Source: an uncultured Planctomycetaceae bacterium
Lineage (GTDB): Bacteria > Planctomycetota > Planctomycetia > Planctomycetales > Planctomycetaceae
Assembly: GCA_963976765.1 (NCBI GenBank)
Contig: CAXBME010000009.1
Coordinates: forward strand, 62,001-126,000
Reading direction: 5' to 3'
Length of the DNA: 64,000 nucleotides
Under the pieces are notes generated by a model. That model was not told the DNA's origin and searched no databases. It saw nothing but the letters and a program-made list of their open reading frames with translations. The position numbers and the translations under genes were made by a program. Positions 42,665-47,041 of the stretch are shown piece by piece. Position 1 is the first letter of the stretch, and every line of letters starts with the position of its first letter.

Positions 42665-43249
42665 ATGGTAAACACTGAAGCTGGTGAGCGACTTTTGCAG
42701 ACGGAAATGGGTTCGTCGGATCGAGCTTGTCAGTTTTATGATCGCCAGATGCGGAGTTCGCTGACCGAGAAAATGGTTTCGCTGATTTGTCGGCAGGAAA
42801 TGGTTTTTGTGGCGACGGCTGATGCGAGTGGGAATTGCGACTGCTCGCCTCGGTTTGGAAATGCTGGCTTCGTGCTTGTGCTGGACGAAGCAACTCTGGC
42901 GTGGCCGGAGTACCGAGGGAACGGGGTTTACGCGAGCCTCGGGAACATCCTGGAAAATCCGCATGTGGGCCTGGTGTTTCTCGACATGTTCGACACGACC
43001 GTCGGCCTGCACGTCAACGGCGAAGCGCACAGCTATCCTGAATCAGAACTTCCCGAAATCCTCGCCGACCATATTGAGCAGCATGATCCGTCGATCGTCG
43101 CAACGGTCGAACGATGGGTTGTCGTAAAAATCGAGGAAGCCTACATCCATTGCTCGAAGCACGTTCCACGCGTGCAGCGAACGGCGAAGCAAATCGACTG
43201 GGGAACAGACGATCCCGCAGCCAAATCCAGCGAATTCTTCGTCGAATGA
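42665..43249 (+). CDS. Pyridoxamine 5'-phosphate oxidase-like FMN-binding protein
   Basis: Motifs ATADASGNCDCSPR.G..GFV, PEYRGNG..ASLGNILENPHVGL and EEAYIHCSKH. Confidence 0.88.
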   Translation: MVNTEAGERLLQTEMGSSDRACQFYDRQMRSSLTEKMVSLICRQEMVFVATADASGNCDCSPRFGNAGFVLVLDEATLAWPEYRGNGVYASLGNILENPHVGLVFLDMFDTTVGLHVNGEAHSYPESELPEILADHIEQHDPSIVATVERWVVVKIEEAYIHCSKHVPRVQRTAKQIDWGTDDPAAKSSEFFVE

Positions 43250-43272
43250 GGCAGGCTGCTCACGATTTTTCG

Positions 43273-43338
43273 CTGAATGACTCCGCCTGAATGACTCCGC
43301 CTGAATGACTCCGCCTGAATGACTCCGCCTGAATGACT
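43273..43338. repeat. Tandem repeat, 14-bp unit CTGAATGACTCCGC x4.7
   Basis: Four perfect copies plus a 10-bp partial copy. Confidence 0.95.
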
Positions 43339-43528
43339 GAAATGCAGAGCGCTTCATCGTCAGCTGAGGGCGGACCATCCTGCGCCTGCGGCACCCGACT
43401 CTTCTGGACGGACGACTCTGGTAGCCATTGTCGCCATGGTGACCGGTTATTGAATGGTCGGATCGAGCAAAGCGGCACTGGCCAACTGCGTCGTTACCAT
43501 GCTGCAGCGATAAATCTACTGTCACCGA

Positions 43529-43570
43529 GAACGCCCCTGACCCGGGAAACCGAATCAGGGGCGTTTCTTC
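43529..43570. terminator. Hairpin between convergent genes (probable terminator)
   Basis: AACGCCCCTGA ... TCAGGGGCGTT stem. Confidence 0.55.
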
Positions 43571-43599
43571 ATTTTGAACGACAGTCGTCGTCGGCCAGG

Positions 43600-44022
43600 T
43601 CAGCTCAGTCGAGACACGACCTGAAACATCAGCCGCGGTGTTTTCTTTCGAGTAATCGCCGCCGCGACTTCAGCCCGCAACCGGCCGGACACATTTTCCA
43701 GCTTCTGCAGGATGAAACCGTTTTCGACGGCGTTCCCACCACTGCCCTCAGCACTGACAGTCACCAGAAGCTGTGACGCATTCGGCGCCGGCACGACCGA
43801 CTCAACCAAAAGCGACTGTAACAGCTCGTCTGCAAAATCGCCGCTGAGAACCAGACTGAGCGTCTGTTCGACCTGTCGGCAAAGTTGCTGAGCTTTCCGG
43901 TCCCGCTTGCTGCTCACCCTGGACTGGCTATCGTAGAATCGACGCGGATCAAGACCGTCGTCTCCCTGAATCTCACCACAACACGCGAGCATTTGCTTGC
44001 GCTGACGTTGATTGAATGGCAT
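43600..44022 (-). CDS. Ribosome-binding factor A-like protein (divergent RbfA paralog)
   Basis: RbfA-like layout: N-terminal helix RKAQQLCRQVEQTLS, strand VESVVPAPNASQLLVTV, and C-terminal GRLRAEVAAAITRKKTPRLMF. It has an extra CCGEIQGDDGLDPR extension. Confidence 0.8.
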   Translation of the reverse strand: MPFNQRQRKQMLACCGEIQGDDGLDPRRFYDSQSRVSSKRDRKAQQLCRQVEQTLSLVLSGDFADELLQSLLVESVVPAPNASQLLVTVSAEGSGGNAVENGFILQKLENVSGRLRAEVAAAITRKKTPRLMFQVVSRLS

Positions 44023-44114
44023 GTTGCTCTCACGAAGAAATGGCGTTTTCTGACATCAGAAAAAGTGGGTGAGGCCCCGCCGCAAGAGCTGTGTCTGTCG
44101 CACGAAGGCGACGT

Positions 44115-44180
44115 TCAGAACTCCTCAACACAGAGATTTCCGCAACGCGGCGAAGCCAGAGAGAAATCGGAATATGTCAT
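44115..44180 (-). CDS. Putative leader peptide MTYSDFSLASPRCGNLCVEEF (21 aa)
   Basis: Perfect SD GAAAGGAGGT 5 nt before the ATG; the ORF ends 92 nt upstream of the RbfA-like start. Confidence 0.65.
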   Translation of the reverse strand: MTYSDFSLASPRCGNLCVEEF

Positions 44181-44632
44181 TGTCGACCTCCTTTCGTGGG
44201 GGAACAGTCTTTGAAAACGCTTCACTTTGAACGCGTGCTCCCATCGACATGGATTCCCACGAGACGGTTCGCGATTCCCGATATGCAGCTCTTTCCGCAA
44301 CAGCGACTGGCATTTTTGCCTGTGCTACTCGAACATTGAGCCGGACCTCGATTCGAATTCGGGTTCACATGCGTCATGCTTTTAGCTGGCTGGTGATGAC
44401 CGATTGACTGTCGACAGGATGGAGTCCGAAACAGCGGCTGCAATCGACATGTTGAGTCAGGTTTCCTGGTACGACGATTCACTCGCTCGCGCCTCGTACC
44501 GGCATCAGACTTTCCTGAACACAAACTCCGAAACGTTAAATGTTCTACCAGGCTACTGGCGGATTGACAGACGAATCACAAATTGAAACTGCCGACCATC
44601 GAGAGCCTGTTTTGACACAAAGTGCTACCACC

Positions 44633-47041
44633 ATGATCCACCGCTTTTCCACCTTTGTTTTTCTGGCCGCTCTACTGAGTTCGGGGATTGCGCTGGCCGA
44701 GCCTTCCTTCGACAAGGATCTGCAACCCTATCTTCAGGCTCATTGCATCCGGTGCCATGGCGCACAGACGCAGGAGGGAGACTTCCGGATCGACACGTTA
44801 TCGCGCGAAGTCGGGCTCAACGACACCTCGCACTGGGCCGAGGTCATCGAGCGCATCAACTCCGGCGAGATGCCTCCCGAAGAGGTGAAGCAGCGACCGT
44901 CGGCGGACGAGAGCGCGACGATCGTCGAATGGCTGGCGGCCCGCATCAAAGAGGGCGAAGCGATTCGGATGGCGCGGAGGGATCGAGTGTCGTACCACCG
45001 ACTGACGCGTGACGAGTATGTCAATTCGGTGCGGGATCTCATCGGTGTCGAGTACGACGCAGCCGATCCTGGTGGCTTGCTCGAAGACCCCGAGTGGAAC
45101 GGCTTCGAGCGACTGGGTTCGGTGCTGACACTGTCCGCAACACATATCGAAAAGTACATGACAGCTGCCGAAGTCGTTCTCGACGAGGCTTACCCGGAAA
45201 AGAAGGTCGAGTATCTCGACCTCAGCCGGCGAGCCGTCGAAATGCGGCCGGGACAGCCTCATTACGAGCGACTTGAGAAGGCAGGACTGCTTGACAAAGT
45301 GCGTTACCCGATGACAACCGCAGGTGAACTCTTTCGCGCATCGAGCCCCTTCCGCGGCCCAGGCCGCAGCTTTCCCGGACCTGGAGTTTATGAGATCAGT
45401 TACACCGTCTGCGGCTTACAACCCGAGGGACAGCGACCGCCTCGAATGCAGGTGTACGAGCACAAGCTGGATCGCGTTCTGTTCGAAAAGGACATCATCG
45501 CGCCCGAAGACAAGCCGATGACCGTGACGTTTCGAACCCATCTCGTGCGTCACCCCGAAATCCATGTCATCAACATCGCCGGTGGGCCCAGGCATCCGCG
45601 AAACAACTCGTCGAGCCGAATTCCCTTCATCACGACGGCGCATCCTCGCGCACCGTGGCAGATGAAAATCACCGATGAAGAGGGCTTCCCCAGAGTTCCC
45701 GTCCTGATCATCGATTCGATTTCCATGCGGGGCCCGATCGTGACCGAAGAAGAACACCGTCGCCGCGATGAATACATGGCAACAGACGAAGGCAACATGG
45801 ATCAGGTCCGCACCGGTCTGGAGGCCATGGCAAAACGCGCATTTCGGCGACCGCTCAAGGCCGGGGAACTGGAGACGTACCTGAAAATCGTTGAAGGAGA
45901 AGTCGCCGCCGGTGAGAAGTTCGTTGACGCAGTCAAGTCGGCGATGACTGCCATCCTGTGCTCGAAGAGTTTTCTCTTTCTCGCGGAAGGCGACCAGAAC
46001 GCGGACCGGCACACGTTGAACGATTGGGAGATCGCGTCGCGCTTGTCGTATCTCCTGTGGAGCACGATGCCGGACGACGAACTGCTCAACGCAGCGGAGC
46101 AGGGCCGGTTACACAACAAGCCCGAACTGCAGCGCCAACTGGCGCGAATGCTGGCCGATCCCCGATCAGATCGCTTCATCAGATCGTTCCCGACTCAATG
46201 GCTGCGGCTGCGGAAGGTCGGCATGTTCGCTCCGGACAGGAACATCTATCCCAATTACGACAGCCATCTTGAACAGAGCATGATTGAGGAACCGCTGGCA
46301 TTCTTTGGTGAAGTGTTGAAAAAGGGCTTAACACTGCGTGAGTTCATCGATTCAGACTGGACGATGGTGAATCCTCGACTGGCCGGGTTTTATGGCCTGC
46401 CTGAATTTTCAGTCGACGAGTTTCAGCGAGTCTCACTCAAGCCCGAACATCATCGTGGAGGCCTGTTGACGCACGCAGCGATTCTCTCACTCACTTCGGA
46501 CGGCACTCGGCATCGACCGGTCCATCGCGGCGTGTGGATGTCAGAATCAATCTTTGGCAGGACTCCACCGCCTCCACCGGCCAACGTAGACCCGATCGAG
46601 CCGAACCCGGTCGATGCTCCCAAAGCGACCATTCGGATGAAACTGCAGGCTCACATCCATGACCCGCGATGTGCGTCGTGCCACAGAAATATTGATCCGC
46701 TGGGCATGGCGTTCGACAATTACAACGCGATTGGCGAATGGCGAACTCACGAAAAAGTCGAAGGGACGGGAGACGATCCAGCGGTTGATGCCAGCGGTGT
46801 TCTGCCGGACGGAAGAAAATTCGCTGACGCCCGAGAGCTGAAACAGTTACTGATGTCGGACCTCGACCAGTTCAACAGGACGTTCATCGAAAAGCTGGCA
46901 ACTTTTGGATTACGCCGCACAATGACATTTGAAGATCGGGAAGATTTAGACGAAATCGCCCGAGTCAGCCGGGAAAAGAATTACGCGGTGCGAGACATCG
47001 TCGAAGCGTTTGTGCTTTCAGACCTGTTTCAAATGAGGTGA
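44633..47041 (+). CDS. DUF1592-containing planctomycete cytochrome c protein (PSCyt/PSD domains)
   Basis: CIRCH, HRLTRDEYVNSVRDL, ASRLSYLLWSTMPD, RPVHRGVW and CASCH..IDPLG. Confidence 0.9.
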   Translation: MIHRFSTFVFLAALLSSGIALAEPSFDKDLQPYLQAHCIRCHGAQTQEGDFRIDTLSREVGLNDTSHWAEVIERINSGEMPPEEVKQRPSADESATIVEWLAARIKEGEAIRMARRDRVSYHRLTRDEYVNSVRDLIGVEYDAADPGGLLEDPEWNGFERLGSVLTLSATHIEKYMTAAEVVLDEAYPEKKVEYLDLSRRAVEMRPGQPHYERLEKAGLLDKVRYPMTTAGELFRASSPFRGPGRSFPGPGVYEISYTVCGLQPEGQRPPRMQVYEHKLDRVLFEKDIIAPEDKPMTVTFRTHLVRHPEIHVINIAGGPRHPRNNSSSRIPFITTAHPRAPWQMKITDEEGFPRVPVLIIDSISMRGPIVTEEEHRRRDEYMATDEGNMDQVRTGLEAMAKRAFRRPLKAGELETYLKIVEGEVAAGEKFVDAVKSAMTAILCSKSFLFLAEGDQNADRHTLNDWEIASRLSYLLWSTMPDDELLNAAEQGRLHNKPELQRQLARMLADPRSDRFIRSFPTQWLRLRKVGMFAPDRNIYPNYDSHLEQSMIEEPLAFFGEVLKKGLTLREFIDSDWTMVNPRLAGFYGLPEFSVDEFQRVSLKPEHHRGGLLTHAAILSLTSDGTRHRPVHRGVWMSESIFGRTPPPPPANVDPIEPNPVDAPKATIRMKLQAHIHDPRCASCHRNIDPLGMAFDNYNAIGEWRTHEKVEGTGDDPAVDASGVLPDGRKFADARELKQLLMSDLDQFNRTFIEKLATFGLRRTMTFEDREDLDEIARVSREKNYAVRDIVEAFVLSDLFQMR

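Follow-up and report, generated by a model that had tools for sequence, protein, structure and literature searches.

The window, by which we mean the whole 64,000-nucleotide stretch analysed, carries on its minus strand a conserved regulatory leader and, behind it, an uncharacterised RbfA paralog of a family tied to rtcB, the gene of an RNA-repair ligase. The leaders of this family contain four segments that can pair, not three: the Shine-Dalgarno (SD) sequence of a short upstream ORF (uORF), an anti-anti-SD inside that ORF, an anti-SD and the SD of the downstream gene. An earlier note on this DNA had laid out three, missing the pairing of the leader SD with the in-ORF segment. Attenuation of some form by the leader ORF is very likely. 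The reading that we favour, with a probability of roughly 0.55, is that the ribosome-binding site (RBS) of the paralog is opened when a ribosome initiates on the leader and cannot pass its first few codons.

Locus and leader elements

The elements are listed below in the order in which they are read on the minus strand.

44266..44272, minus strand: predicted -35 element GCGAACC of a presumed ECF-type promoter; a family-wide motif with a putative promoter role
44246..44249, minus strand: predicted -10 element TGTC, 17 nt past the -35 element
44193..44206, minus strand: stretch predicted to pair with the RBS of the rbfA-like gene in ribosome-free RNA (minimum-energy fold, full leader)
44186..44195, minus strand: strong SD of the leader ORF, GAAAGGAGGT, read from the sequence
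44190-44184, minus strand: segment 1, which can pair with 44158-44152 (7 bp)
44115..44180, minus strand: leader ORF of 21 codons, MTYSDFSLASPRCGNLCVEEF, read from the sequence
44146..44158, minus strand: segment 2, the anti-anti-SD within the leader ORF and 5' arm of helix A
44157-44146 with 44084-44073, minus strand: helix A, 12 bp, 3 of them G-U
44097..44112, minus strand: small hairpin (GUCGC/GCGAC stem) between leader stop and anti-SD, predicted fold
44073..44089, minus strand: segment 3, the anti-SD (44089-44081) plus the overlapping 3' arm of helix A (44084-44073)
44089-44081 with 44034-44026, minus strand: helix B, 9 bp, 2 of them G-U
44026..44034, minus strand: segment 4, weak GAGAG-type SD of the rbfA-like gene
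43600..44022, minus strand: paralog of RbfA (140 aa) with the RbfA fold and, at its N terminus, ~35 additional residues that carry DDGxDP
43530..43565, no strand assigned: G+C-rich hairpin with 11-bp perfect arms between the paralog and a convergent PPOX-type gene, read from the sequence

The SD, the 21-codon ORF, helices A and B and the rbfA-like gene that the earlier note described all lie on the minus strand exactly where it had placed them, and its GUCGC/GCGAC stem is present at 44112-44097 in the predicted fold. Its CUGUGU/ACACAG stem appears in an alternative fold but not in the naked minimum-energy fold. The overlap from which it derived the mutual exclusion of A and B is real, at only 4 nt (44084-44081); the other 5 nt of the 5' arm of helix B sit, in the predicted fold, inside the loop of helix A and paired with the end of the leader ORF, so that the exclusion is also topological. 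Downstream, the PPOX-type flavoprotein gene (42665-43249) converges on the paralog and is separated from it by the strong hairpin at 43530-43565, which is possibly a terminator; a terminator scan did not call it.

When the leader region was folded, as had been proposed, helix A was recovered, with a stability no better than chance (z = -1.5; 15 of 200 shuffles were as good). The case that the structure is more than chance therefore comes from conservation and covariation in relatives, not from the single-sequence fold. Rfam covariance models gave no match up to E = 1 in 43000-45500. By folding, this copy forms helix A in naked RNA, and does so as early as the synthesis of segment 3. A long-range pairing is also predicted to cover the RBS unless a ribosome stands on codon 1; the stretch responsible (44193..44206) is found in this copy only, has no counterpart in the consensus fold of the five closest leaders (which covers the stretch in part), and its pairing may be due to chance. 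Forced-ON folds of this copy are 2-3 kcal/mol less stable than forced-OFF folds, both in naked RNA and with the ribosome at codons 1-3.

A separate family of RbfA paralogs

The paralog scored 29.8 bits with Pfam RBFA (PF02033), below the cut-off of 34.7, and 17.2 bits with NCBIfam TIGR00082, whose cut-off of 51.15 was likewise not reached. Its AlphaFold2 model (mean pLDDT 80.5; 55-64 across the first 40 residues) retrieved RbfA structures as all of the top eight Foldseek matches (best E 6e-6), indicating an RbfA-type KH fold. The genome encodes a canonical rbfA after infB in addition to three paralogs; the separate canonical copy expected by the earlier note is thus present, and this gene is not the only rbfA. 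All three paralogs have the leader and two have rtcB, this copy standing alone, and 21-codon ORFs occupy the same place before both other paralogs and in two relatives. Canonical rbfA was also detected above cut-off in 22 of 25 other genomes, picked because they carry a paralog. A quick tree of 147 proteins separated the 21 canonical sequences from the 126 paralogs with a support of 100, and infB, absent at this locus, adjoins 19 of 23 canonical rbfA loci.

RbfA binds the 16S 3' region during late assembly (PMC10582724). Compared with canonical RbfA (PF02033, TIGR00082), the paralogs share the fold and retain G113 and the C-terminal PxLxF, and differ in forming a separate clade, scoring below the cut-offs, having no adjoining infB and coexisting with a canonical copy in the genome. 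They gain an N-terminal extension, a basic N-terminal stretch and the DDGxDP motif, and also an invariant-like RKxxQLCxQV, and they have lost the canonical DPR motif, whose P and R are found in 100% of the 21 canonical proteins and are replaced in 94 paralogs; 30S binding by the paralog is therefore not assured. The family comprises 430 proteins, and 1,570 clusters at E up to 1e-10. It is patchy, being present in 30 of 301 sampled genomes of the phylum; the named records and atlas clusters belong to Planctomycetota, and no relative was found in viral contigs. Close homologues of this copy (72-79% identity) occur in other samples. One well-supported clade (L038, L041, L045, L048, L049, L052, L054 and L055), several members of which have only 92-99 aa, is without the DDGxDP extension, the leader and rtcB.

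Conservation of the leader and its putative promoter motif

After removal of exact duplicates, weak matches and loci with less than 340 nt upstream, 135 loci were kept, 128 of them non-redundant at 90%; the set included 80 of 228 confirmed metagenome matches. A uORF was accepted if it started 90-330 nt upstream, had 8-30 codons and formed an SD duplex of -6.5 kcal/mol or better, computed against a generic anti-SD; the controls were 400 ORFs of this genome, read from the first Met of long ORFs and not from curated starts. A strong-SD uORF was detected in 92 of the 128 loci, as against 54 of the 400 control genes, so that the conserved SD and uORF which the earlier note proposed to look for upstream of planctomycete RbfA paralogs were indeed seen; 36 loci had no detected leader. 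The leader was found in 60 of the 63 loci with rtcB downstream. Most uORFs of the family have 16-21 codons, and nearly all loci combine a strong leader SD with a weak gene SD. A search for the same leader before other genes of this genome gave nothing significant, and a strict four-segment pattern had 0 matches in this genome, missing the three true copies too, so that its blank result says nothing either way. A search of open literature, at the level of titles and opening lines of abstracts, returned no description of the RbfA paralog and rtcB pair or of its leader.

A GAACY-N16/18-GTC motif lies upstream in 72 of the 128 family loci (25 of 400 controls), with a spacer of 16 or 17 in 71 of the 72; uORF and motif occur together in 63 of 128 loci and in only 3 of 400 controls. 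We read this motif, GCGAACC-N16/17-GTC, as a putative 'ECF-type' promoter. The site of this copy ranks sixth-best in the genome under a matrix built without this genome's loci. No matching motif was found in the main-text passages covered from the ECF classification paper PMC7826278. A stress-specific regulon was considered and rejected: besides the three paralogs, the top sites, often intergenic, precede mixed genes, many of them apparently housekeeping by names judged by eye, and the motif may represent a widely used planctomycete promoter class. The second-best site (C24:101034, L173) is located ~340 nt upstream of rsgA (Pfam RsgA). RsgA is the GTPase that releases RbfA from the 30S subunit, and co-regulation of rsgA with the RbfA paralogs is possible. 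Scans revealed neither a sigma-70 promoter nor an intrinsic terminator in the leader, a T5 run being present in only 13 of 81 leaders, and no intrinsic terminator was called in the window.

Four pairing segments

Of the 92 leaders, the 81 whose uORF lies no more than 260 nt away were folded, and an alignment was built from 55 that have 15-23 codons and a spacing of 140-200 nt. In the alignment, segment 1 corresponds to the leader SD and its spacer, segment 2 to GAGCCU within the ORF, segment 3 to AGGCUCUC and segment 4 to GAGAG. Helix 2:3 is the best documented, with 90.3% of cells paired in the 55 leaders (slid controls reached at most 54%) and 20 double changes compared with 4.9 in shuffles; the shuffles ignore relatedness and kin are not independent, so covariation counts and p-values are overstated, and double-change counts are to be read as support, not as probabilities. 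Helix 3:4 is 77% paired, and helix 1:2 is 82% paired in its core and 63% in its extension. The cognate duplex was better than shuffled ones in 53 of 55 leaders for 3:4, in 51 for 2:3 and in 36 for 1:2. For the last, cognate beat non-cognate partners in 33 of 55, the same as for a control segment pair; 1:2 is the least supported of the pairings, and these figures hint at it weakly. Many members of the family have a hairpin placed between leader stop and anti-SD.

In the subfamily of this copy (five leaders), segment 2 is shifted ~9 nt towards the start, and its pairing partner is a 3' extension of segment 3; this pairing is helix A. This helix is 91.7% paired in the five closest leaders, with one double change, not beyond shuffles, and the leader of this copy is the most divergent of the subfamily. 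Equivalents of helices A and B are conserved in orthologous leaders; their lack, the earlier note had said, would count against it. Two hallmarks of leader-ORF attenuators are present: a translatable, conserved uORF with a strong SD, and an anti-SD helix facing a competing helix that has one arm in the uORF.

Segment 2 stands at a fixed distance from the start. In 46 of 81 leaders its pattern begins 32 nt beyond the start codon's A; no other tested offset accounts for more than seven. Where codon 12 is of the Ser type (52 cases), the triplet is AGC 45 times, whereas TCN makes up 87 of the 98 Ser codons at positions 2-9. Among three related leaders of 10 codons, two retain the pattern in the same position past their stop, and the third has it 1 nt earlier. 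Judged from these sequence patterns, segment 2 is conserved at the nucleotide level and not as peptide. A fixed distance between segment 2 and the AUG would be expected if the footprint of a ribosome is what is measured. Leader codons 4-8 are not conserved. Codon 2 is CGA or CAA in 36 of 81 leaders and begins with C in most, a bias that might slow the first decoding step.

Ribosome position and predicted opening of the RBS

Opening energies of the RBS were predicted for the 55 leaders by folding only the RNA ahead of the ribosome. The mean cost was 7.8, 7.5 and 6.7 kcal/mol with the ribosome at codons 1, 3 and 5, and 8.4-9.7 kcal/mol at codons 7-15; it was more than 1 kcal/mol lower at codon 5 than at codon 12 in 33 leaders and higher in 11. 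With segment 2 shuffled, the cost rose to 9.1 kcal/mol. For this copy, the values were 3.6-4.9 early and 5.0-6.4 late. The step was smaller when upstream RNA was included (8.6 naked, 7.6 at codon 5, 9.1-9.8 late), and codon 1 was then no lower than naked RNA (19 of 55 lower, 18 higher). In 46 leaders, the predicted SD accessibility was 0.20 naked, 0.22-0.24 early and 0.18-0.19 late, and neither accessibility profiles nor pair probabilities gave a clear switch between states; for both paralogs of this genome, helix B stayed near 100% formed whatever the state. These predictions point, to a modest degree, to early stalling as the ON state and elongation as the OFF state. The proposal of the earlier note that efficient leader translation is OFF and an early stall ON agrees with the predicted opening energy, a step of ~2 kcal/mol. 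Its further claim that scarce ribosomes also mean ON is doubtful for the family, because with 1:2 paired, RNA free of ribosomes would stay OFF; for this copy, helix A does form in naked RNA, but a separate long-range pairing is predicted to hide the RBS.

According to our favoured reading, free RNA would fold into 1:2 plus 3:4 and be OFF, and an elongating ribosome would melt segment 2, allow 3:4 to form and again leave the gene OFF. A ribosome parked at about codons 1-5 would cover segment 1 and leave segment 2 free, and the resulting 2:3 helix would release the SD (ON). In this copy the parking range would be codons 1-3, segment 2 being ~9 nt nearer the start. The signal would be a general early arrest, caused by a cut 16S rRNA decoding centre, a cut tRNA or drugs acting on initiation or early elongation, and not a specific arrest peptide. 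As output, the family would supply an RbfA-like protein together with RtcB, both acting on damaged small subunits; with no rtcB of its own, this copy would rely on the two RtcBs encoded next to its paralogs.

Two other ways of working the leader have to be weighed against this. In a three-segment logic, ribosome-free RNA would be ON through helix A and busy leader translation OFF, and the switch would read the supply of active ribosomes (cold, starvation, slow assembly). The folding of helix A in this copy, naked or once segment 3 is made, fits such a scheme, as do the low standing of 1:2 and the 46 naked leaders, which average 6 bp of 2:3 and 3.9 bp of 1:2. Yet the consensus of the five-leader subfamily and both paralogs of this genome fold into 1:2 plus 3:4 when naked, the naked opening energy of 8.6 lies between the early (7.6) and late (9.1-9.8) values, and the further predicted pairing noted above covers the RBS in the naked RNA of this copy; we regard this scheme as unlikely. 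An erm- or cat-like arrest peptide, with an S/P-L-S-L-R-like motif stalling the ribosome together with a drug or metabolite, would account for the Ser12-Leu13 and the codon-2 Arg/Gln common to many leader peptides. We give it little credence, however: the motif tracks the nucleotides of segment 2, AGC dominating at codon 12, and the pattern persists past the stop of short leaders and in another frame. Moreover, codons 4-8 vary, the peptide of this copy is without the motif, and predicted energies for stalls at codons 8-15 favour OFF.

Linkage to rtcB and a possible role in RNA repair

The rtcB gene lies directly downstream of the paralog in 63 of 128 loci and upstream in 3. It is absent from 49 loci with at least 600 nt downstream (many with a flank of ~1.5 kb), and 13 were too short; 24 of the 49, among which is the present locus, have a leader. 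In L073, L080 and L083, rtcB is upstream and no leader precedes the paralog, the pair being kept with its order reversed. The paralog stop and the rtcB start overlap by 4 nt in 45 of 56 rtcB loci, so control of the first gene would likely carry to the second. Among 50 long loci, any other neighbour recurs in at most 3. The linked RtcBs are short (~385 aa), and the five motifs that we take to be catalytic are each kept in 50-52 of 52 full-length proteins. Their best NCBIfam equivalog score is to PRK09588, and RtcB family scores fall under the cut-offs (193.9 vs 407; 148.6 vs 271.8). PrfH was not found above cut-off in this genome. An anti-correlation with PrfH was discarded, since prfH occurs in 1 of 25 paralog genomes but also in only 3 of 201 sampled in the phylum.

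This genome has a third, canonical-type rtcB (C2:190102-191409) unlinked to the paralogs. An SPFH/Band 7 gene converges on rtcB at C5:88414-89703 and, judged by likeness, at C74:4137-5387, and both leaders have a DUF1016-like gene upstream; the C5 and C74 paralog-rtcB loci look like a duplicated cassette.

A complex predicted for the C5 paralog, not for this copy, with its RtcB scored 0.48, the best control reaching 0.01, with runs agreeing in at least 81% of contacts and a partner pLDDT of at least 67. Of solved pairs, 116 of 157 reach the mark for a complex, as do 2 of 215 mismatched ones; scores of up to 0.60 comprise only 18 solved pairs and both mismatches, and the prediction is thus a weak hint that the RbfA paralog may bind RtcB. 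Ribosomes cut by colicin E3 in the 16S rRNA decoding centre are described as halting on the start codon, and RtcB2 as repairing cut 30S and 70S particles (PMC13166195), and repair of cut 30S by RtcB2 is also reported in PMC9223846. A start-codon stall of cut ribosomes and their repair by RtcB2 would fit an early-arrest switch placed before rtcB. In proposing a stress- or antibiotic-inducible 30S factor, the earlier note missed rtcB as the usual partner of the family, which points to RNA repair and not only to a generic stress factor for the 30S subunit. We tentatively suggest, at odds clearly below even, that the paralog is an adaptor dedicated to one task: it would bind RtcB and offer it the cut 16S rRNA of damaged 30S subunits to ligate.

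The leader might instead be a real attenuator with a non-repair output, either an autoregulating RNA-binding protein or an alternative factor for 30S maturation or hibernation, with rtcB a passenger. The 49 of 128 loci without nearby rtcB, 24 of them with the leader, would be explained in this way, as would the short leaderless clade and the changed canonical residues; the position of rtcB directly downstream in 63 loci and upstream in 3, the stop/start overlap, the lack of any comparable neighbour and the weak predicted complex all speak against it and make it rather improbable. For this window alone, the copy could be a decaying duplicate that inherited its leader and, because rtcB is gone, no longer switches. 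Its missing rtcB and its divergence within the subfamily agree with decay, but the copy retains the promoter motif, the SD, the ORF length, helix B and an intact gene, its 12-bp helix A is maintained with a compensatory change, and homologues at 72-79% identity occur in other samples, so that we consider decay very improbable.

Relation to known systems and significance

In ermC-type attenuation, four segments form 1:2 plus 3:4 in the OFF state and 2:3 in the ON state. The planctomycete leader has the same layout, but the leader's own SD serves as its segment 1, and there is no evident drug-specific arrest peptide. As described in PMC12057347, the leader ORF PA5471.1 of the PA5471.1-armZ-PA5470/prfH system of Pseudomonas aeruginosa responds to impaired ribosomes by inducing an RtcB-like gene together with a ribosome-related partner. 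There, transcription attenuation is proposed and the partner is PrfH, whereas here an anti-SD is used, no leader terminator was found and the partner is an RbfA paralog. As in the RtcB2-PrfH module, RtcB appears to be co-translated with a ribosome-factor-like gene, but there is no linked prfH and the RtcB scores below the RtcB2 family cut-off. In Escherichia coli toiL-topAI and in vmlR/cplR/vga(A), a uORF senses general ribosome arrest, start-codon arrest included, and unmasks the downstream RBS (PMC12121999). The toiL uORF itself pairs with the RBS and any stall opens it; in the planctomycete leader the anti-anti-SD is part of the uORF, and the RBS is therefore predicted to open on an early stall only. 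The leader would work like leader-ORF attenuators and is a member of none of these groups, having no terminator, arrest peptide or PrfH.

The analysis defines a conserved planctomycete regulatory leader without an Rfam match and ties an uncharacterised family of RbfA paralogs to RNA repair. If the adaptor reading were true, the pair would be a second kind of ribosome-repair module, using an assembly-factor paralog where RtcB2 uses PrfH, and the leader would sense the very defect that is repaired, a ribosome that initiates but is unable to decode. An assembly-factor fold would then have been reused for ribosome repair, and the leader would be a compact reporter of ribosomes that have initiated but are not elongating.
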